A stretch of 64,000 nucleotides of DNA from a virus. Location: positions 29,898 through 93,897 of the IMG/VR virus record IMGVR_UViG_3300032893_000018, one strand, 5' to 3'. Position 1 is the first letter of the stretch; each line of letters starts with the position of its first letter. The notes below the pieces were generated by a model. The model made no database searches and was not told the origin of the DNA. It saw only the letters and a program-made list of their open reading frames with translations. Positions 4,333-34,302 of the stretch are shown here, in pieces. The translations under genes and the position numbers were made by a program.

Positions 4333-4362
4333 TTGCAATGATGGGCCATCATGGCCTATCCT
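4333..4362 (+). promoter_or_regulatory. Sigma70-type promoter of cas12 with palindromic operator
   Basis: TTGCAA-N18-TATCCT; ATGATGG-G-CCATCAT inverted repeat at 4338-4352; GGAG SD before ATG 4408. Confidence 0.55.
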
Positions 4363-4407
4363 TTGGGTGTCCGGTCGACGGTCGGCCGCAAAGGACATGG
4401 AGATCAA

Positions 4408-6063
4408 ATGCTGACTCTTTCTCGACCAGCTCTGATCGAATCAGACGAAGAACGACTGTTGCGTGAGTGTGCCTCGGCGTGCTGGACCTATCACCGATTG
4501 CTCGACTTCGAGGAGCAGCACCAGCGTGTGCTCGACGAGGTCGCGAACACCATCGCCCCCGGCATCGTTAGAGTCGGTCGCATTCTTGCGCGGCTAGCGC
4601 GACGAGCACGACGCGCGGAGCGCACGACGAAGGGGCAATGGGCGCCGAACCCGAGACCGGAACTCGCCGCCGGGTTGCGCCTGCGCTTGGACTCGATGCG
4701 CGCGGCGCGCAACGCAGATCCGCGTTGGGCCGTGGCGCTAGGCTGGGCCGACGAGCAAGTGGGAGAGCCGAAGTCCGTGCGTCGGCGTCGTGCGAAGCCC
4801 GTCGACAAGATCAAGCGTCGCAAGACGGAGACCGATGAAGCTTTTGCCAAGCGCCTCGCGCTGCTCTCGCAAGACGAGAGCGACGAGCACTACGCCAAAA
4901 AGCTCGAGGTCATTCCGCGAGACACTCGTCGCGACGCGTATCGCAAAGAGCTCTACGGGCAGCGCCGCATCTACTGGGGCACGTGGAACGCTCTCGTGCG
5001 GAGCGTCGACCAGGCGCGGAAGGACGTGATCGGCCAGCGTGCGCGAGGGATGCCGGCGGAGATCCGGCGCCCGAAGTTCCGCGACCCGGTTTCTCTTTCG
5101 GCGGACGCTGGCGGTTTCCGAATAGTCGAGCGCGGCTCGCCGTGGTGGACGCTGGAGCTCCGCATCGGGGTGAGCGACGGATGGGTCCGGTTCCGCGCAA
5201 AATGCGGTAACTGGCACGCTGTCCCGGCGGACGCGGCGTTCCGCACGCTCAAGCTCACGCGGCGCAGGGATGGTGAGCGCTGGACGTATTCGGTGAGCCT
5301 AACGATCGACATGGAAAAGTCGACGGCGCAGCGAGCAGAGTCGCGGGTCGTAGCGTTCGACTGGGGCCACCGTGAGCACGGGCATGACCGAGCATCCGAT
5401 GGGATCCGGGTTTTCACATGGCTCGGCGACGATGGCGAGCAAGGCGAAGTTCTGATCCCATCCGAGTGTCGCGCCGCCCTCGACGAGATCGACGGGCTGA
5501 AGAGCCGCCTGGACACGACCTACGATGCGAGACGGACGACGCTCGCTCGCCTTCATCGAAACAGGTACCTGTATCGGCGCGCGCTGATGCGGTCCGGCGT
5601 GCGGACCGCTGAGGAAACGGACTGGCTCCGATGGGAGATGCGGTACGAGCGTCGAATCATGGCGCGGCGAAAGAGGATCGTGAACCTCCGTCGAGAGATC
5701 TACCTCACTGCCGTCCGGGAGCTGCGGGCCCGCTACGCGATCTTCGCGTTCGAGGCCGAGTCGGTACCGCAGATCAAGAAGAAGCAGAAGGACGAGGAGC
5801 GGAAACGTCGGCAGCGGAGCAACCGCGACCTCGCGGCGAGGTACGAGTTCACTTCGATTTGCGAGCGGTCAGGTGCCACGATTATCTCGGTACCCGCTCG
5901 CAAATCGACGAAGGAGTGTCCAGATTGCGGGCAACTCACCGAAAACGGTCCTGAATTGCTCATTGCCTGCCCGGGTTGTGGGCGTATTCGGGACAAGGAC
6001 CGAGGTGCGTCACGTGTCATCCTGGGCCGGGCGAAGGAGGCGCTCGCAAACCGTGCTGCATGA
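4408..6063 (+). CDS. cas12: Compact type V CRISPR effector, Cas12m/V-U1-like (about 551 aa)
   Basis: RuvC-I AFDWG, RuvC-II FAFEAE, CPDCG/CPGCG zinc finger, RuvC-III RDKDRGASRVI; IYWGTWNALV...PAEIRRPKF resembles the V-U1 motif; array starts 31 nt downstream. Confidence 0.85.
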   Translation: MLTLSRPALIESDEERLLRECASACWTYHRLLDFEEQHQRVLDEVANTIAPGIVRVGRILARLARRARRAERTTKGQWAPNPRPELAAGLRLRLDSMRAARNADPRWAVALGWADEQVGEPKSVRRRRAKPVDKIKRRKTETDEAFAKRLALLSQDESDEHYAKKLEVIPRDTRRDAYRKELYGQRRIYWGTWNALVRSVDQARKDVIGQRARGMPAEIRRPKFRDPVSLSADAGGFRIVERGSPWWTLELRIGVSDGWVRFRAKCGNWHAVPADAAFRTLKLTRRRDGERWTYSVSLTIDMEKSTAQRAESRVVAFDWGHREHGHDRASDGIRVFTWLGDDGEQGEVLIPSECRAALDEIDGLKSRLDTTYDARRTTLARLHRNRYLYRRALMRSGVRTAEETDWLRWEMRYERRIMARRKRIVNLRREIYLTAVRELRARYAIFAFEAESVPQIKKKQKDEERKRRQRSNRDLAARYEFTSICERSGATIISVPARKSTKECPDCGQLTENGPELLIACPGCGRIRDKDRGASRVILGRAKEALANRAA

Positions 6064-6094
6064 ATCCGAGATCATTGGGGTCGTCCGGATGTCC

Positions 6095-7179
6095 CCATCA
6101 ACAGCCGCGCGAGGCTTCGAGTATCGCGACAGCATGAACACCGACGGTGTTGCGACGTTCGAGCCGTCCATCAACAGCCGCGCGAGGCTTCGAGTATCGC
6201 GACCCCGAGCACGACGAGAACTCGTCGGGCCATCAACAGCCGCGCGAGGCTTCGAGTATCGCGACGACCGATGACGGCGAGGCAGTTGTCGCGCCCGACG
6301 AACCATCAACAGCCGCGCGAGGCTTCGAGTATCGCGACAGCTCTCCGAGTACCCCACGTCTTGGGACTTCTACGAATCCATCAACAGCCGCGCGAGGCTT
6401 CGAGTATCGCGACGCGTCGCTGCGGCGTCGGCGGGTCACGCGAGCTCCCCCATCAACAGCCGCGCGAGGCTTCGAGTATCGCGACAAGACCCGGCGAACC
6501 CCACCGGCAACGACCTGTCCGCCATCAACAGCCGCGCGAGGCTTCGAGTATCGCGACAAGTAGAACACGATCGCTCCGACCACGGTCACGACGAGCTGCC
6601 ATCAACAGCCGCGCGAGGCTTCGAGTATCGCGACGCATCAAAGAGCGTGAGTGGTACGGGGCCGTCGATCGCGGGCCATCAACAGCCGCGCGAGGCTTCG
6701 AGTATCGCGACATGTTCTCGACCCTTTCGACCTGCTCGCGTCCCGCCCCATGCCGCCATCAACAGCCGCGCGAGGCTTCGAGTATCGCGACGCGGCACGC
6801 CTCCGGGACATCGCGGACCGCGCGCCGCCATCAACAGCCGCGCGAGGCTTCTTCGAGTATCGCGACGAGTCGGCACTGCACCGCGCGCCGCACGAGGTCG
6901 GCCATCAACAGCCGCGAAGGGCTTCGAATACTTCGACCGTCGAGCACGCGGACCGGTCTCCCGCCATCAACAGCCGCGAAGGGCTTCGAATACTTCGACC
7001 ATGGACGATCCGGGAGCGAGCGGCGGCGTACGCACACAAATAACAGCCGCGACGGGCTTCGAATACTTCGACCCCCACACGAGCAGCCATCAATAGCCGC
7101 GAAGGGCTTCGAATACTTCGACCGGTGGTAGCTGCCTGCCGCTTTATCAACAGCTGCTAGGGGCTTCGAGTACCTAGAC
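6095..7179 (+). CRISPR. CRISPR array, 16 repeats of 36 bp and 15 spacers
   Basis: CCATCAACAGCCGCGCGAGGCTTCGAGTATCGCGAC at 6095,6168,6230,6303,6378,6450,6522,6599,6676,6756,6828 (last has +CTT); variant B at 6902,6964,7037,7087; variant C at 7144; spacers 14-44 nt; orientation inferred. Confidence 0.97.
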
Positions 7180-7249
7180 GAGAGGATGTAGATGCGCGGC
7201 AATAACGGGCGATGGCAAAGCGAAAGCTCCGAGGCAAGCTGAAAAAACT

Positions 7250-19693: not shown

Positions 19694-22248
19694 CGGCCGT
19701 CGCGACGAACTACAAGTTCCCGACCGAGAAGAGCTCGGACGGATCGATCCGCGCCGTGTCGAGCTTCGGCCCCGACATGACGTCCTTCGGCCTGGACCCG
19801 TCGCACCTCGGGAAGGCCGGCTACGACGCGGAGGCGCTGTACAACAGCGAACGCGCCAAGGAGCTCGACTTCCGATCGAGCTTCTACCGGTGCACGAACC
19901 ACAATTGGAAGCCATTCAACATGGACGGCGGGCTGATTGGGCCGCAGGAGCGCAGCGCTCCGTTCGAGGGCGCTCAGCCCATGATGTCGACCATGTCGGG
20001 GCCGACGTCGTACGTGCCGCTGTCGGCGCGCCGCCCGCACGCGCCGGTTCGGATCGCGCGCACGATCGTGCGCGCGTTCACCGGGATGCTCTTCGGGCAC
20101 AATCGCTGGCCCGGGATCCGCAGCGACGACCCCGACACGCAGGCGTTCGGCGAGGCCGTGGCGAAGGCGGCGAACCTCCGGAACCGGTTCGTGCGGGCGC
20201 GGAACCTCGCGGGCTCGTGCGGCACCGCGGCGCTCTCGTGGTTCTTCCGCCAGGGCTCGCCGCGCGTGCGGGTGCACACCGGGCGGTTCGTCCACGTGCT
20301 CGAGTGGGACGACGTCGACGACTACGTCGTGAGGCACGCGACGGAGCTCTACCAGAGCTGGGCGACGCGCGAGACCGAGGACGGGCCGCAGCGCTATCGC
20401 GTGTGGGTGCGTCGCGATTGGACGCCCGAGGCCGACGTCGTGTTCAAGCCGATCGAGGTGACGGGCGAGAGCCCCGAGCAGTGGGTGATCGATAAGGAGC
20501 GGAGCTTCGTTCATGGCGACGGGTTCGCCCACATCGTCTGGCTCACGAACTACCCGGACGACGACGAGCCGTCGGCGGTCGACGGGCAACCGGATTACGC
20601 CGAGCTGTACGACCCGATGGCGACGCTCGACGTGTCGAACTCCGTCGCCGTGCGCGGCGTGATGCGGAACCTCGACCCGACGCTCGTCGTGAAGATGGAC
20701 CCGATGGACGTCGGCGCGGCGATGATCAAGAAGGGCAGCGATAACGCCCTGGTCGTCGGCGAGCAGGGCGACGCGGATTACCTCACGATCGATGGAGATG
20801 TGGTGACGGCGGGCAAGGAGTTCGTCGGCACGCAGCGCGAGCAGATCCTGGAAGTCGCGCAGTGCGTGGTGCCCGATCCGAACGAGGTCGCCGCGGGCGG
20901 CACGAGCTCGGTCGCGCAGAAGATGATGTACGCGCCGATGATCGGCACCGCCGACGTCCTTCGCGAGCCGTGCGGGCACGCGCTCGTCCAGCTGCTCGAA
21001 CAGATGAAGCTATCGGCTGCAAACGAGATGAGCCGACCGCCGGGCGAGGTGCAGGAGTACGACGTCGACCTGTCCGAGCCCGAGTCGGAGCCCGACGCGC
21101 TGGAGCAGGACGACGACGTTGAGAACTTCGAGGCCGAGGAGATGACAGCGGCGGACCAGGAGCAGCCGGCATCCGCGGTCGAGTACTACCTCGACCTCCC
21201 TCCGCGCGTAGTGATCGACGTCGTCGACGGTCAGAAGGTCGAGCGCAAGGTCGAGATCAAACCGGGCGAGGGGAAGTTCTGGCTGGAGTGGGGCGAGTAC
21301 TTCCCGCCGACGTCACAGGACAAGCAGGCCGCCACCGAGGCGGTGTCGTCGGCGGCGGGCGGGAAGTCCGTGCTGTCGCAGCAGACCGCGGTCGAGCTCG
21401 CGTCATCGCTGTACAACAAGGACGCCACGGAGGAGTGGGCGCGCGTGCAGGCGGAGCGCGAGCAGGACGCACGCGAGACGGCGGGCATGTTCCCGGGCAC
21501 GGGCGGCGAGGTCGATCCGAACGCGTCCGAGCCCGTCGACACCCCTGCGCCCGACGACGATCAGGAGACGTTGATCACGCCGACCGACATGAGCGTCGTC
21601 ACGCTCGTGAACGAGGCGCGCGCGTCGGCAGGGCTCGGTCCGCTCCGCACGCCCGAGGGGCAGTCCGACCCCGACGGGTGGCTCACGGTCGAGGAGTTCC
21701 GCGCGAAGCGACAGGCGAAGGGCGAGCAGCAGGGCGCGGTCGAGGGCAAGGTCGCCGCGGGCGTCGACCCAGCGGATGCGGCAGCCGACGCGATCGATGC
21801 GCCGGCTGCCGATGCGCCGCCGACCGATGCTGCCGATCCGCCGACCGGCGGTGGCGACATCACGAACCAGGTCGACGGGATCCTGCAGGGCGATTTCCCC
21901 GACGAGGCGTTCGACTGGGTGCACGACGCCAAGTGGACGGGCCCGACGAGCGTGCCGATTGACAAGATCGACACGTCGCAGCGCGACACGTGGCGCGCTA
22001 GCAAGGAGCCCGGCAAGGTCGCCGACTTCGCTGGCCTGATGCAGGCGGGCGGTGAGGACATCAAGCCGGTGATCCTCGTGCGATGGCCCGGTTCGAAGCA
22101 GCTGTTCGTCGCCGATGGTCACCACCGAGTGCTCGCGGCGGAGAAGGCGGGCGTGCCGGTGAAGGCGTTCATCGCCGACGTGCCGCAGCAGAACGGCCCG
22201 TGGATGACGATGCACTCGAAGCAGATCCCGAAGGCGGCAGGGCAATGA
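19681..22248 (+). CDS. Portal protein with C-terminal ParB-like domain
   Basis: Position after terminase; VNEARASAGLGPL portal C-terminal motif; terminal PVILVR...ADGHHRVLAA. Confidence 0.75.
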   Translation: MVAVTAVATNYKFPTEKSSDGSIRAVSSFGPDMTSFGLDPSHLGKAGYDAEALYNSERAKELDFRSSFYRCTNHNWKPFNMDGGLIGPQERSAPFEGAQPMMSTMSGPTSYVPLSARRPHAPVRIARTIVRAFTGMLFGHNRWPGIRSDDPDTQAFGEAVAKAANLRNRFVRARNLAGSCGTAALSWFFRQGSPRVRVHTGRFVHVLEWDDVDDYVVRHATELYQSWATRETEDGPQRYRVWVRRDWTPEADVVFKPIEVTGESPEQWVIDKERSFVHGDGFAHIVWLTNYPDDDEPSAVDGQPDYAELYDPMATLDVSNSVAVRGVMRNLDPTLVVKMDPMDVGAAMIKKGSDNALVVGEQGDADYLTIDGDVVTAGKEFVGTQREQILEVAQCVVPDPNEVAAGGTSSVAQKMMYAPMIGTADVLREPCGHALVQLLEQMKLSAANEMSRPPGEVQEYDVDLSEPESEPDALEQDDDVENFEAEEMTAADQEQPASAVEYYLDLPPRVVIDVVDGQKVERKVEIKPGEGKFWLEWGEYFPPTSQDKQAATEAVSSAAGGKSVLSQQTAVELASSLYNKDATEEWARVQAEREQDARETAGMFPGTGGEVDPNASEPVDTPAPDDDQETLITPTDMSVVTLVNEARASAGLGPLRTPEGQSDPDGWLTVEEFRAKRQAKGEQQGAVEGKVAAGVDPADAAADAIDAPAADAPPTDAADPPTGGGDITNQVDGILQGDFPDEAFDWVHDAKWTGPTSVPIDKIDTSQRDTWRASKEPGKVADFAGLMQAGGEDIKPVILVRWPGSKQLFVADGHHRVLAAEKAGVPVKAFIADVPQQNGPWMTMHSKQIPKAAGQ

Positions 22249-28128: not shown

Positions 28129-29523
28129 ATGTCTCAGCAACTCGTCGTAGGCATCCCGCCTGCGGTCCTCAAGCTCCAGCAGGAAGGTCTGCTCGAGCGT
28201 TCGTTCCACGACGGCCTGTTCCCGGCTCTCCTCTTCCGCGGCGAAGCGGAGGTCGACACGTGGCCCGAGCACGCCGGCACCGAGATGCTCTTCACGCGGC
28301 CCGGCCTGATGGCGCCCGTGACGGAGCCGATCGCGCCCGGCACGGACCCGCAGAGCCAGACGGTGCCCTACGAGCAGTGGGTCGCGCAGCTCGTGCGGTA
28401 CGCGAACAGCATCGACACGCACATCCCGACGTCGGTCACGGCGAACGGCGATCTGTTCCTCCGCAACATCCACCAGCTCGGCCTGAACGCCGGGCAGTCG
28501 GTGAACCGCATCGTGCGCAACGCGCTCTTCGTCCCGTACCTCTCGGGGTCGACGAACATGATCGCGGCGGGCGGCAGCACGGACGACACGATCCGCGTCG
28601 CCGCGCTGAACGGCTTCACGGACGTCGTGCTGACGGCGAACGTGCGACCGGTGCCGGTGAGCTCGTCCTCGCCGCTGCCGATCACGATCAAGAACTCGGG
28701 CGGCGACATCGCGGTGAACGTCGTCGGTTTCGAGGCGGACGACCCGACCGATCCGAACGGCCCGGGCACGCTCTTCCTCGACGCCGCGCTCGGCGCGACC
28801 GTGGCGATCCGCACGCCGGTGCTCTCGGCGAACCGGCCGATCATCATCCGCGCGGGCGGCGGCTTCTCGGTCGACGCGATCAGCTCGTCCGACGTGCTGC
28901 AGCTGCAGGACATCATCAACGCGGTCCAGAAGCTGCGTAAGCAGAACGTGATGCCCCACGAGGACGGGTTCTTCCACGACCACGTCCCGACGGAGGGCGA
29001 GGCCCAGCTGTTCACCGACCAGGTCGTGCAGCGCCTCAACACGTCCCGCCCCGACGACGTCTACTACCAGGAGGCGTTCATCGGGACGATGGCCGGGTGC
29101 GTGCACTACTCGAACAACGAGTGCCCGGACTCGGACAACAGCGGCACGCTCGTGTCGACGGGCACGAGCTCGTTCTACTCGCGCGGCATCGGCGCGGAGA
29201 CGATCAACGCGGCCGGCGTGCGCATCGGTCGCCTGATCATCACGGGCCGCGGCGTCCTCCAGGAGCGGTGGATGGACGAGAACAAGTACCTCACCGAGGC
29301 CGGCGTCACCGGCAAGGTCGGGGACTTCCAGATCGTCAACATGGGCATCCAGGTCGACACCGACCGCGTGCAGCTCAAGCTGCGCGCGCCGCTGAACAAG
29401 CTCATGGACGAGGTGAGCGCGACGTGGGCGGCGACGACGTCGTTCGCCGCGCCGACCGACATCGCGTCGGGGGGCCCTCAGAGATATAAGAGGGCCATCT
29501 GCGTGGAATTCGCAATCGAATGA
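28129..29523 (+). CDS. Major capsid protein
   Basis: 464 aa after scaffold; very high GC3; typical position and size. Confidence 0.8.
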   Translation: MSQQLVVGIPPAVLKLQQEGLLERSFHDGLFPALLFRGEAEVDTWPEHAGTEMLFTRPGLMAPVTEPIAPGTDPQSQTVPYEQWVAQLVRYANSIDTHIPTSVTANGDLFLRNIHQLGLNAGQSVNRIVRNALFVPYLSGSTNMIAAGGSTDDTIRVAALNGFTDVVLTANVRPVPVSSSSPLPITIKNSGGDIAVNVVGFEADDPTDPNGPGTLFLDAALGATVAIRTPVLSANRPIIIRAGGGFSVDAISSSDVLQLQDIINAVQKLRKQNVMPHEDGFFHDHVPTEGEAQLFTDQVVQRLNTSRPDDVYYQEAFIGTMAGCVHYSNNECPDSDNSGTLVSTGTSSFYSRGIGAETINAAGVRIGRLIITGRGVLQERWMDENKYLTEAGVTGKVGDFQIVNMGIQVDTDRVQLKLRAPLNKLMDEVSATWAATTSFAAPTDIASGGPQRYKRAICVEFAIE

Positions 29524-29583: not shown

Positions 29584-30378
29584 GTGAAGCGCTGCACGAT
29601 CTGCACTCGCGAGCATCACCGCAAAGACGGTCGGTGCTCCGAGTGCAGTCGCGCACGCAAGCGCGGCGAGCTCTACGGCCGCGCGATCGAGTGGGGGATG
29701 CGCGCCGCGACGGGTCTTCGAGCGTGCACGCACTGCGGGGCGATGAAGGACGTCGACGCCTTCAAGTGGCAGAAGCGGAAGCTCGGCAGGCATCGAACGT
29801 CTTGGTGCAGGGCGTGCCTCAACGAGCGCGCGAACGAGTCGATGAAGGTGCTCTGGCACTCGCCCGAGCGGAGGGCCTTGCGCGGGTTGCAGCGGGGGAT
29901 GCGGTGGCTTTGCAGGCCGAAGCCGTTGACTCCGAACGAACGCGCGGCCAATTGGCGGAATGCGAACCGGGAGCGTTACCGAGAGATCACGCGGTCGTTT
30001 TGGCGCACGCCGAAGGGCAAAGCCTGGATCCGGAATAACCGGGACAAGTTGAGCGCAGCCCGCAAGCGCTTCGCCAGGACGCCGCACGGCCGCGAGGCGA
30101 TCCGCCTGCAGGCGCAGAAGCGGCGGGTGCTCATCGCGCGGGCGGTGTGCACGCTCACGCGGGCCGAGTGGGAGGCGATCGTCGAGCGGCACCGCCACTG
30201 CTGCGCGTACTGCGGGAAGAAGCTCGTCGGCGCCGACCTGACGATGGACCACGTCGTGCCGATCTCGAAGGGCGGGCACCACACGGCGGCGAACGTCGTG
30301 CCCGCATGCGGCTCGTGCAACTCGAGGAAGCACGCGCTGGGCCTGGAGGACTTCCTCGCGCGCCTCCGGTCGTCGTAG
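29584..30378 (+). CDS. Free-standing HNH endonuclease
   Basis: CAYCG...DHVVPISKGG...NVVPACGSCNSRK; N-terminal zinc fingers. Confidence 0.92.
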   Translation: MKRCTICTREHHRKDGRCSECSRARKRGELYGRAIEWGMRAATGLRACTHCGAMKDVDAFKWQKRKLGRHRTSWCRACLNERANESMKVLWHSPERRALRGLQRGMRWLCRPKPLTPNERAANWRNANRERYREITRSFWRTPKGKAWIRNNRDKLSAARKRFARTPHGREAIRLQAQKRRVLIARAVCTLTRAEWEAIVERHRHCCAYCGKKLVGADLTMDHVVPISKGGHHTAANVVPACGSCNSRKHALGLEDFLARLRSS

Positions 30379-32264: not shown

Positions 32265-32320
32265 GTGCGGCATGACCTCCGAACGTGGGCCATCTTGACC
32301 CACCCAACAGGAGGCACGAC

Positions 32321-32995
32321 ATGACCAGGCAACCCAAGAAGGAATCGATCGACCGGGCGAAGGCGCTCATCACGGGCGGCGGGGAGGAGCGGGTGTCGCT
32401 CAAGGCGCCCGACCTGCGGGTGGCGACCTTCCACATCGTCGGCACCGCGCCGTACGTTCAGAACAAGTTTTCGAACAAGGCGCGCGAGATGATGAAGCAG
32501 ACCCAGATGATGGGGTCGCAGGCGAAGACCCGGAAGGTGCGCGAGCCGAAGGACTTCGACGCCGTGTACCGGGGCGCGATGCACCTCACCGAGGACGGTA
32601 AGTACGGGATCCCGGCGAACGCCTTCAGGTCGGCCTTGATCTCGGTGTGCCGCCTCATCGGGTTCAAGATGGTGCTCGCGAAGCTGTCGGTGTTCGTGCT
32701 GCCCGACGGGTTCGACGCGGACGATGGCACGCCGCTCGTGTTCATCAACGGCGAGCCGGTGGCGCACGAGACGGTCGGCAGGAACGACAACGGCAGCGCC
32801 GACATCCGCGTGCGCCCGATGTGGCGAGAGTGGTCGGCCGACGTGCGCGTGCGGTTCGATGCGGACCAGTTCTCGCACAAGGACGTCGCGAACCTGCTGA
32901 TGCGCGTCGGCATGCAGGCGGGCGTCGGCGAGGGGCGGCCCGACTCGAAGAACAGCGGCGGCATCGGCTGGGGCACGTTCGAGTTGGAGGGCTGA
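32321..32995 (+). CDS. Stand-alone RAMP/Cas7-like RNA-binding protein
   Basis: N-terminal strand FHIVGTAPY, YGIPANAFRSAL (RAMP IP-x-S-x-K/R helix), RVRPMWREWS, C-terminal Gly-rich loop GVGEGRP...GWGTF; AGGAGG SD. Confidence 0.75.
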   Translation: MTRQPKKESIDRAKALITGGGEERVSLKAPDLRVATFHIVGTAPYVQNKFSNKAREMMKQTQMMGSQAKTRKVREPKDFDAVYRGAMHLTEDGKYGIPANAFRSALISVCRLIGFKMVLAKLSVFVLPDGFDADDGTPLVFINGEPVAHETVGRNDNGSADIRVRPMWREWSADVRVRFDADQFSHKDVANLLMRVGMQAGVGEGRPDSKNSGGIGWGTFELEG

Positions 32996-32998
32996 GCG

Positions 32999-33442
32999 AT
33001 GGCCGAGATTACCGACAAGGTCATCGACAGGCTCGAGGCGCTGAGGAAGAAGGGAGGTGGCGTCCTCACGCCCGAGGCCGTGCTCGCCGACGCGAAGGCG
33101 AAGGCGAGCCCGCTCCACGCGCACTTCGACTGGGACGACACGGTAGCGGCGCACCGCTACCGGCTGATCCAGGCGGGGCAGCTCATCGTGCGCGTGAAGG
33201 TCACCATCGAGCCGCGGACGCAGCGCGACGTGCAGGTCGACGTGCAGATGTACGAGCAGACCGGGCAGGAGCAGGGCGAACGCGTGTACCGGCACATCGC
33301 CGACATCGCGACGAACGAGGAGTACTACGCCGAGCTGCTCGACTCGGCGAAGAAGGAGCTGCAGGCATTCCAAAGGAGGTATCAATCGCTCAAGGAGCTG
33401 CGGGCGCTCTTCGAGCAGATCGAGAAGTTGTTCGCGGCCTGA
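32999..33442 (+). CDS. Partner protein of the RAMP gene
   Basis: LTPEAVLADA...SPLHAHFDWDDTVAAHRYRLIQA motif; coupled to the RAMP gene. Confidence 0.7.
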   Translation: MAEITDKVIDRLEALRKKGGGVLTPEAVLADAKAKASPLHAHFDWDDTVAAHRYRLIQAGQLIVRVKVTIEPRTQRDVQVDVQMYEQTGQEQGERVYRHIADIATNEEYYAELLDSAKKELQAFQRRYQSLKELRALFEQIEKLFAA

Positions 33443-33445
33443 CCA

Positions 33446-33772
33446 CGCAGGCGCCGCATCTCTTCGCTCCGCGCCACAACACGGTCCTCCTCACCGCTCC
33501 GCAACGCAGGCTACGCCACGCCCCGCTTCACGCAACCCCGCCGCACCAGCCATCGCAGGCTACGCACCGTTCCGCCGCGCTACGCCCCGCCCGTACTCCG
33601 CCGCCCACTTCATCGCAGGCTCCGCTCCGCTCCGCCACGCGTGTCAGCACAACGCACCGCCACGCTCATCAGCTCACCGCAGGCCTCGCTCGTCTCTCCG
33701 GTCCTGGCACGGCTCATCTGTGCTTCGCAGGCATCGCCACGCACCGTCACGCATCGCATCGGCCGGCAACGC
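33446..33772 (+). ncRNA. Pentamer-periodic array of 6 units, putative guide RNAs
   Basis: CGCAGGC at 33446,33505,33554,33614,33678,33726; each followed by (NN-CGC-like)n pentamers; strongly C-skewed and intergenic. Confidence 0.75.
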
Positions 33773-33789
33773 TGGTTATCATCTGAACG

Positions 33790-34302
33790 GTGAAGGTCGA
33801 CCTCCGGGACGCCGGGCGCGCGCTCGCGCAGCTCGGCATCGGCATGAACCGAGCCGCTGAGCGCGGGCTCCTCTCCGCGGCGATCCGCGGCGTGCAGATC
33901 ATCCAAAGCCAGATCATCCCGTCGAAGGTCCCGCAGCCGGTCGACCGCGGGCTCTACCGCGCCGGGTGGAAGTGGGGGCCGGTGCCCGGCGGCGGCGAGC
34001 TGTGGAACTCGGAGCCGCACGCGCCGCTGATCGAGTTCGGCGTGCGCGCCGGGAACATCAAGGTCGGGCGCAAGATGATCGACGCGCTCACCGAGTGGGC
34101 GATGCGAAAGGGGATCGCGTCGGACCGCAAGGAGGCGCGCCGGGTGGCGTGGGCGATTGCGCGGCGCATGAAGAAGCGCGGGATCTTCAATCGCGGCCGC
34201 GGGCTCGGGATCCTCAAGGAGCTCATGACGAAACGCATGCCGGCGATCATCCGCGAGGAGATCAAGCTGGAGGTCGCGCGCGAGCTCGCTCGGCGGCAAT
34301 AA
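33790..34302 (+). CDS. Neck/tail-completion protein (HK97 gp10-like)
   Basis: PVDRGLYRAGW, HAPLIEFG, IARRMKKRG. Confidence 0.7.
   Translation: MKVDLRDAGRALAQLGIGMNRAAERGLLSAAIRGVQIIQSQIIPSKVPQPVDRGLYRAGWKWGPVPGGGELWNSEPHAPLIEFGVRAGNIKVGRKMIDALTEWAMRKGIASDRKEARRVAWAIARRMKKRGIFNRGRGLGILKELMTKRMPAIIREEIKLEVARELARRQ

Follow-up and report, generated by a model that had tools for sequence, protein, structure and literature searches.

The 64,000-nucleotide stretch analysed here, which we call the window, covers positions 29,898 to 93,897 of the virus record IMGVR_UViG_3300032893_000018, a phage genome of 93,897 bp with 69% G+C that is rated complete. Within the structural/late gene block of this phage, on the + strand at window positions 32321-33789, lie two genes and a periodic tract that resemble the systems named VIPR (Viral Interference Programmable Repeat), which comprise Vipr, vap and vrRNAs and were described in SUSP1 and in a P. 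fulva prophage by the discovery paper (10.64898/2026.04.26.720920). The first gene, vipr (open reading frame A, ORF A, 32321-32995), encodes a protein of 224 aa and is preceded by AGGAGG 7 nt 5' of its ATG. The second one, vap-like (ORF B, 32999-33442, 147 aa), starts 3 nt past ORF A. The predicted vrRNA array (33446-33789) follows on the + strand as well, with six tail-less units of 10-13 pentamers each, and a neck/tail-completion gene starts after it with a GTG at 33790; the non-coding tract between ORF B and this GTG measures 347 nt.

ORF A has no model in Pfam, NCBIfam or PADLOC, and matches in PHROGs a family of unknown function, phrog_4652 (E 7e-18). Its AlphaFold (AF2) model, with a pLDDT of 82.8, was compared to known folds by two techniques: Foldseek returned Csm3, Cmr4, type VII Cas7 and Cas7-11 domains (probability 1.0, E ~1e-4), and VIA-align gave Z scores of 10-11.7 to Csm3, Cmr4 and type VII Cas7, the best 50 rows being all CRISPR RAMPs (Z 9.3-11.7). 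Its G-loop reads GVGEGRPDSKNSGGIGWG, and a hairpin around residues 146-168 forms the thumb. The RAMP character that the initial annotation had read from sequence motifs is thus borne out by the predicted fold. That annotation had also pointed to a resemblance to VIPR, which we could substantiate: the single match of ORF A in the PDB by phmmer is chain 36pp_D, "SUSP1 Vipr protein" (E 2e-3, in the region from thumb to G-loop; E 8e-4 when the family profile is the query), and a profile of 26 family members, compared by hhalign with the Vipr of a SUSP1-like Felixounavirus, gives an alignment that spans residues 33-224 (E 3e-5). The identity between ORF A and the SUSP1 Vipr is only about 23%, and the family of ORF A gathers 5,383 database clusters at E <=1e-3. 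By its modelled fold and its alignments, ORF A is a minimal single-RRM RAMP of the Cas7 type, homologous to the described Viprs.

In the cryo-electron microscopy structure of the SUSP1 Vipr (10.64898/2026.04.26.720927), the scaffold base G1 is read by His17 and Asp177, the scaffold base G2 by Arg138 and Trp178, the latter by stacking, and the pocket for Y3 is made of helix 1 and the G-loop. We took the corresponding residues of the window protein from the hhalign alignment. Arg138, Asp177 and Arg179 of SUSP1 correspond respectively to Arg165, Glu204 and Arg206, all three invariant in the family. His17 corresponds to position 48, which is Asn in the window protein and, in the family, His in 75%, Asn in 19% and Cys in 5%. 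Trp178 corresponds to Gly205, a glycine found across the whole clade.

We compared the locus with 103 others (23 genome and 80 viral loci) encoding Vipr homologues of 43-66% identity. Homologues of ORF B, with 28-45% identity, adjoin vipr in most of these loci, which supports the initial proposal that ORF B is the partner of ORF A. In PHROGs, ORF B matches phrog_15946, also of unknown function (E 3e-21); no curated family for this putative Vap was found in Pfam, NCBIfam or PADLOC. Its AF2 model (pLDDT 87.6) consists of an alpha/beta N-terminal domain (residues 1-105) and a C-terminal helical hairpin (106-147). The fold matches are mostly with winged-helix proteins, at a weak level (Foldseek E >0.2, VIA Z 5-6.5), and the winged helix-turn-helix protein Csa3 of PADLOC is matched with an E of 0.007. 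The N-terminal domain thus appears weakly winged-helix-like in the model. This agrees with, but does not prove, the published pattern, several vap genes being reported to encode winged-helix-like DNA binders. Besides, the Vap family profile matches the TALE protein Hax3 with a summed E of 8e-8, no single stretch passing. We rejected this homology and attribute the match to chance, because it is driven by a short motif, GG-x-L-x-P-x-DVV-x-x-A, summed over the TALE repeats; in ORF B this motif lies at about residues 6-35 (window 32999-33105).

The initial annotation described the tract that follows ORF B as six units, each opened by CGCAGGC. The six copies (33446, 33505, 33554, 33614, 33678 and 33726) and their spacings (59, 49, 60, 64 and 48) are exact; the entire 64-kb window has only 22 copies on its + strand, and about 0.1 would be expected per 330 nt. 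On the other hand, the sequence suggests that CGCAGGC is better read as a 4-nt step, i.e. the last CGC of one unit, a lone A and the first GGC of the next unit, than as a heptameric opener. The units then start at 33450, 33509, 33558, 33618, 33682 and 33730, and follow the grammar GGC-NN (CGC-NN)n CGC-A, where NN is a variable dinucleotide. GGC opens all six units and is found in only one of the 62 remaining triplets. Of the 68 triplets, 65 have a pyrimidine as third base (baseline 0.63, p 2e-10) and 43 have G as second base (baseline 0.23, p 1e-12); at the first position, C is found 46 times and G 15 times. The entropy reaches 1.92 bits at each of the two NN positions, and 1.29, 1.53 and 0.77 bits at the successive triplet positions. 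The autocorrelation is 0.47 at lag 5 and 0.43 at lag 10, other lags remaining at 0.2-0.35, and no 5-nt periodic tract scores higher than the array, either in the window or in the whole 93.9-kb genome (z ~5), where no second tract of this sort came up. The regularity has defects: slips of 1 nt are found in units 3 and 5, and unit 5 is strongly degenerate. A 3' tail would not fit, as the units abut by the 4-nt step and the next gene begins 5 nt past the last parsed pentamer. No structured RNA family of Rfam matches the array, and its RNA folds worse than all of 100 dinucleotide shuffles (z +4.2), a poor folding which is as expected for a putative guide held extended by a protein. The array departs from the canonical GGY triplet (YNNGG), and fits the alternative YNNNG already published.

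The 5-nt autocorrelation that the initial annotation proposed to test for next to homologous genes was found: in about 90% of the 103 loci, the strongest lag-5 tract lies directly beside the homologue of vipr or of ORF B. The periodic sequence on the vipr strand is GGC-NN (2,966 periodic GGC counts over the 103 loci), in runs of about 8-13 pentamers divided by a single 4-nt unit, GGC-A-GGC. The lone junction base is A in 259 of the 276 GGC-type junctions, and 32 of the 35 CGC-type junctions read CGCAGGC. The observation that the triplet of the window is CGC and not GGY therefore stands: the sister loci have GGC, and a small set shares CGC with the window.

Some relatives at the edge of this picture are worth describing. 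Mycobacterium phage Quico (NC_028751.1, L360:2093-2488) and Cyanophage Cy-LDV1 (BK059895.1, L359:3143-3366) carry clean GGC-NN arrays with GGC-A-GGC junctions, and Vipr homologues, annotated as hypothetical, with 31% and 53% identity respectively. Their loci are not in a structural block; they lie in the early region, by repressor and excisionase (Xis) genes, together with Cro and Ant in Quico. The matching phage records number about 27 for Mycobacterium and 5 for Gordonia. The existence of cultured relatives with a like array architecture (Quico and its kin, Cy-LDV1) opens this biology to experiment. In a Gemmatales metagenome-assembled genome (BPJP01000018.1, L023:3681-5646), the tract beside a 43%-identical Vipr homologue, which is Asn48/Val153, extends over about 2 kb, much more than elsewhere. 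Judging from the counts on the vipr strand (298 GTC, with a three-in-a-row count of 248), its periodic triplet is GTC, so that scaffold base 2 is T, not G; the partner gene comes after the array.

Altogether, these data very probably identify a VIPR locus with a tail-less "staggered array" in a complete 94-kb high-GC phage. The initial annotation had seen in it a candidate non-CRISPR RNA-guided system, possibly a new variant. The variant is retained, in the form of the CGC scaffold. The novelty of the system is not: it belongs to a published and very large family whose departures from GGY were already reported, and is not a new class. As VIPR and its non-canonical scaffolds were published in 2026, the window locus is a variant of a known system, and from the sequences compared its CGC scaffold is a lineage variant of triplet base 1. 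The remark that no other class 1 cas gene is present also holds: library scans, PADLOC included, found no match to cas families among the ORFs neighbouring vipr, and the array adjoining vipr, whose period is 5 nt, shows no repeat-spacer structure.

The way such a locus would work can be proposed by homology. In the published VIPR systems, the protomers grip the constant triplet and leave NN exposed (10.64898/2026.04.26.720920), which is the mode of action that the initial annotation had proposed. In the window, vipr, the vap-like gene and the array are probably co-transcribed as one + strand transcript, as suggested by the common strand, the 3-nt gaps and the lack of a predicted terminator. 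A scan of the locus detected neither promoter nor terminator, its consensus being that of sigma-70, which is uninformative for a high-GC host. By analogy with SUSP1, Vipr protomers would polymerise on this RNA, one per pentamer, each holding a C/G-G-Y triplet and exposing NN. The 4-nt step CGC-A-GGC, a junction kept across more than 300 junctions in the relatives, would break the 5-nt register and filaments would end there, so that the transcript may yield six guides of about 48-64 nt, each with a true GGC start. The 10-13 triplets of the window units fall within the 9-16 repeats per RNA of published VIPR guides. Finally, if the published SUSP1 work applies here, the ribonucleoprotein would read double-stranded DNA as NN-x-NN-x, with a one-base skip, and silence a competing mobile element, which a winged-helix-like Vap would help.

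Several observations weigh against this assignment. The tryptophan that stacks on G2 in SUSP1 is replaced by Gly205 in the entire clade, and the details of the binding mode may therefore differ from those of SUSP1. ORF B has no similarity to the SUSP1-type vap1, the sole vap tested experimentally, and its own fold matches are weak. At positions 109, 118 and 200 the window protein has Val, Val and Ala, against Ala, Thr and Val in more than 220 homologues, one of them only 27% identical. The window array has 63% canonical triplets against 82-100% in the other CGC arrays, which makes it the most degenerate of the set, and its unit 5 is nearly lost.

Lastly, no guide target was found in the phage genome itself, in 1.6 Mb of related loci or in exact scans of contig collections. 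Exact full-length NNx matches of units 1 and 4 numbered zero in the viral and genome contig collections. A mismatch-tolerant search of the own genome with skips 0-3 gave only the trivial self-match at skip 3, the best match otherwise reaching 15-16 of 22-24 bases, which is the shuffled mean. The 1.6 Mb of related loci contained nothing above shuffled guides under the one-base skip rule. This absence is uninformative, because the collections were scanned for exact matches only, when the published criterion is an NN match of >=80%; the absence of a self-target at skips 0-2 agrees with what is reported for published VIPRs.

Part of these observations could be accounted for by a VIPR in decay, whose array, and perhaps protein, would be losing function, CGC and the off-consensus triplets then reflecting relaxed selection and GC/C-biased drift. 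We consider this improbable for the locus as a whole, and a partial decay may nevertheless have occurred. Decay would fit the low proportion of in-phase canonical triplets compared to the eight other CGC arrays, the register slips in units 3 and 5, the latter nearly unrecognisable, the lack of targets found, and the changes A109V, T118V and V200A at positions otherwise invariant. But these three changes are conservative, both ORFs are intact, and 54 of 57 invariant residues are retained. Moreover A109V and V200A resemble an exchange that compensates for size: they align to Ala75 and Cys173 of SUSP1, which would place them near the Y3 pocket, at the interface between helix 1 and the G-loop. The losses in the array are uneven, position 3 remaining a pyrimidine in 96% of triplets and position 2 bearing most of the losses, which is not what a uniform neutral decay predicts. 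All six CGC-A-GGC junctions are perfect, and the array RNA still avoids secondary structure. Degenerate internal pentamers also exist in close relatives of the GGC type, e.g. L001 and L024, and are called frequent in the discovery paper.

It is hardly credible that the tract is not a guide RNA but a low-complexity coding region, a DNA minisatellite or a structural DNA element: an ORF on the + strand (32647-33786) and another on the - strand (33610-34299) are open across it, and no promoter or terminator came out of the scan, but the frames in question run over ORF A and ORF B in a different phase, and long spurious frames are expected in a stop-poor sequence of 69% GC; the 5-nt period and the 4-nt steps shift the frame at each repeat, against a codon periodicity (0.35 at lag 3 versus 0.47 at lag 5); the grammar of constant triplet and hypervariable NN stands beside vipr in about 90% of 103 divergent loci, always on the vipr strand; and such arrays of SUSP1 and P. 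fulva were shown to be guide RNAs by small-RNA sequencing and pull-down (10.64898/2026.04.26.720920).

Taking the locus as a VIPR, its CGC scaffold can be confronted with its protein. Eight other loci have the CGC form, viral (L108, L109/L115, L111 and L112) or from metagenomes (L243, L249, L299 and L329). They were found by scanning for the CGC junction pattern, i.e. through their arrays, and encode Vipr homologues with 52-66% identity to the window protein. Their arrays are very clean repetitions of GGC-NN(CGC-NN)n-CGC-A, with 82-100% canonical triplets. The same junction pattern, sought in the genome contig collection, gave mostly single chance matches in GC-rich genomes, which are uninformative. 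All the other CGC-array proteins have Gly153, in the thumb hairpin, and Cys48 wherever this position is readable; the window protein shares Gly153 and, unlike its CGC kin, has Asn48. At the first base of the triplets, the fraction of C is 0.84-0.87 for Cys48/Gly153 and 0.74 for the Asn48/Gly153 of the window. It falls to about 0.4 for Cys48/Val153, whose arrays are mixed, to 0.35 for Asn48/Ala153 (L037, also mixed) and to 0.02-0.15 for His48/Gly153, most other combinations staying below 0.3.

Neither position is sufficient by itself. We rejected position 48 as sole determinant, since proteins with Asn48, Ala48 or Leu48 mostly go with GGC arrays and Cys48/Val153 with mixed ones; Gly153 as sole determinant was rejected too, the His48/Gly153 loci having GGC arrays. 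Three loci (L037:2890-3300, L044:4020-4330 and L078:4020-4330) mix GGC and CGC within single units, with a C fraction of 0.35-0.43, from which we conclude that base 1 was relaxed to G or C in some lineages rather than switched outright. The covariation between the 48/153 genotype and the scaffold is in our opinion a lead, not a demonstrated code, because the CGC loci were found via their arrays and because the tree is poorly resolved: quick trees scatter the CGC loci, and one single clade stays compatible with the approximately unbiased (AU) test (p 0.34).

A further idea, which we hold to be rather unlikely but worth stating, is that the CGC-scaffold VIPRs are natural orthogonal pairs of Vipr and vrRNA. 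Base 1, originally G, would have become C as the G1 pocket changed (Cys or Asn instead of His at the position of SUSP1 His17, plus Gly153), and the guides and protein would thereby be insulated from rival GGC systems and from "solo" vrRNAs hijacking Vipr. The invariant A-GGC of the unit starts would then be a separate signal of nucleation or processing, read unlike the internal triplets, and the window protein might represent a second, independent solution (Asn48/Gly153 with A109V, T118V and V200A) with a relaxed reading of base 2.

Upstream of vipr are found the major head protein gene (28129-29523, + strand) and directly 3' of it a gene of the HNH/endonuclease VII type (29584-30378, + strand; phrog_8660, E 2e-21), probably a free-standing homing endonuclease, as well as small unknown genes, also on the + strand.

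The phage carries another locus of interest, unrelated to the VIPR locus and 26 kb upstream of it: window 4351-7185 contains a Cas12f/TnpB-like gene of 570 aa, with the PF07282 TNB domain (E 2e-7), and after it a CRISPR array with some 16 repeats, the 36-nt repeat being CCATCAACAGCCGCGCGAGGCTTCGAGTATCGCGAC, with variant repeats at the far end. This phage has therefore two RNA-guided systems. A 17-bp imperfect palindrome, TGGGCCATCTTGACCCA, lies on the + strand at 32286-32302, 18 nt 5' of the vipr start codon. The palindrome-like site TGGGCCATSWTGRCCYA has only three copies within 3 mismatches in the 94-kb genome, for about 0.2 expected by our own estimate; the two other copies are at window 4342-4358, 5' of the Cas12f-like gene, and at genome positions 21617-21633, outside the window and 5' of a third gene. 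These two copies share flanks resembling -35 and -10 promoter elements. From its sequence and placement the palindrome is a candidate operator that may be shared by vipr, the Cas12f-like gene and the third gene. In this complete phage, a miniature type V CRISPR locus thus coexists with a VIPR locus, and the same palindromic site may precede the two of them.

VIPR is so far described in preprints of 2026 only; it has been proposed as an ancestor of CRISPR RAMPs and is a compact programmable DNA binder. The window locus leaves this general picture unchanged. On the other hand, CGC-NN is found in at least nine loci and varies along with two positions of the protein, which offers a handle on how Vipr recognises its scaffold, and the CGC systems may be a source of orthogonal Vipr/guide pairs for multiplexing. 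The boundary xGC-A-GGC, kept despite the internal switch to CGC, argues for a signal of its own; this conservation is relevant to the cutting of tail-less arrays into guides.

How does the locus compare with the systems already known? The class 1 CRISPR backbone proteins (Csm3, Cmr4, type VII Cas7 and Cas7-11) provide the closest solved folds to ORF A, with the RRM core, the Gly-rich loop and the thumb in common, and like Vipr they polymerise on RNA with a fixed step. The step differs, 5 nt for VIPR and 6 for CRISPR, and the guide information of VIPR is not contiguous. Moreover the window locus has no repeat-spacer array, Cas5, Cas6, large subunit or second RRM.

The kinship is closer with VIPR type II, that of SUSP1 and the P. 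fulva prophage. Both have a small RAMP with one RRM, a G-loop and a thumb, the homology extending over the full length, and a phage-encoded two-gene operon with an adjoining array on the same strand and no adjacent cas genes; in both, the pentamers associate a constant triplet with a hypervariable NN, about 10-13 times per guide in the window. The differences are in the scaffold, GGY in type II and CGC in the window, where GGC is the first triplet only; in the absence from the window of a conserved 3' tail or pseudoknot, the units abutting via the 4-nt step; in Asn48 for His17 and Gly205 for Trp178, with a partner dissimilar to vap1; and in the location of the window locus within a structural gene block.

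The alternative consensuses YNNNG, NNNGG and NNNNG, and the tail-less staggered arrays, were already published in the discovery paper (10.64898/2026.04.26.720920, figs. S17-S18 and Methods), the staggered arrays not being confirmed there by small-RNA sequencing. The window array is tail-less in the same way, the end of a unit being the start of the next one, and its C-NN-CG fits the YNNNG register, where G1 is not conserved and G2 and Y3 are kept. The available text of that paper names neither a CGC scaffold nor the rule of a GGC first triplet. More generally, in the text available for the VIPR papers we did not find a CGC scaffold with a retained GGC initiator, nor a link between the scaffold and both the His17-equivalent and thumb position 153, nor the outlier protein of the window.

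The last comparison is with the arrays GAC/NN, CAC/NN, WGT/NN and TGH/NN, which form 21 clusters and were found by a genomic language model (10.64898/2026.10.21.760802); they demonstrate that variant scaffolds occur. The text of that work does not name CGC/NN, and reports neither a link between scaffold and residues nor an initiator triplet. The likeness with the window is otherwise clear, both being 5-nt arrays with a triplet other than GGY beside proteins of the Vipr fold.

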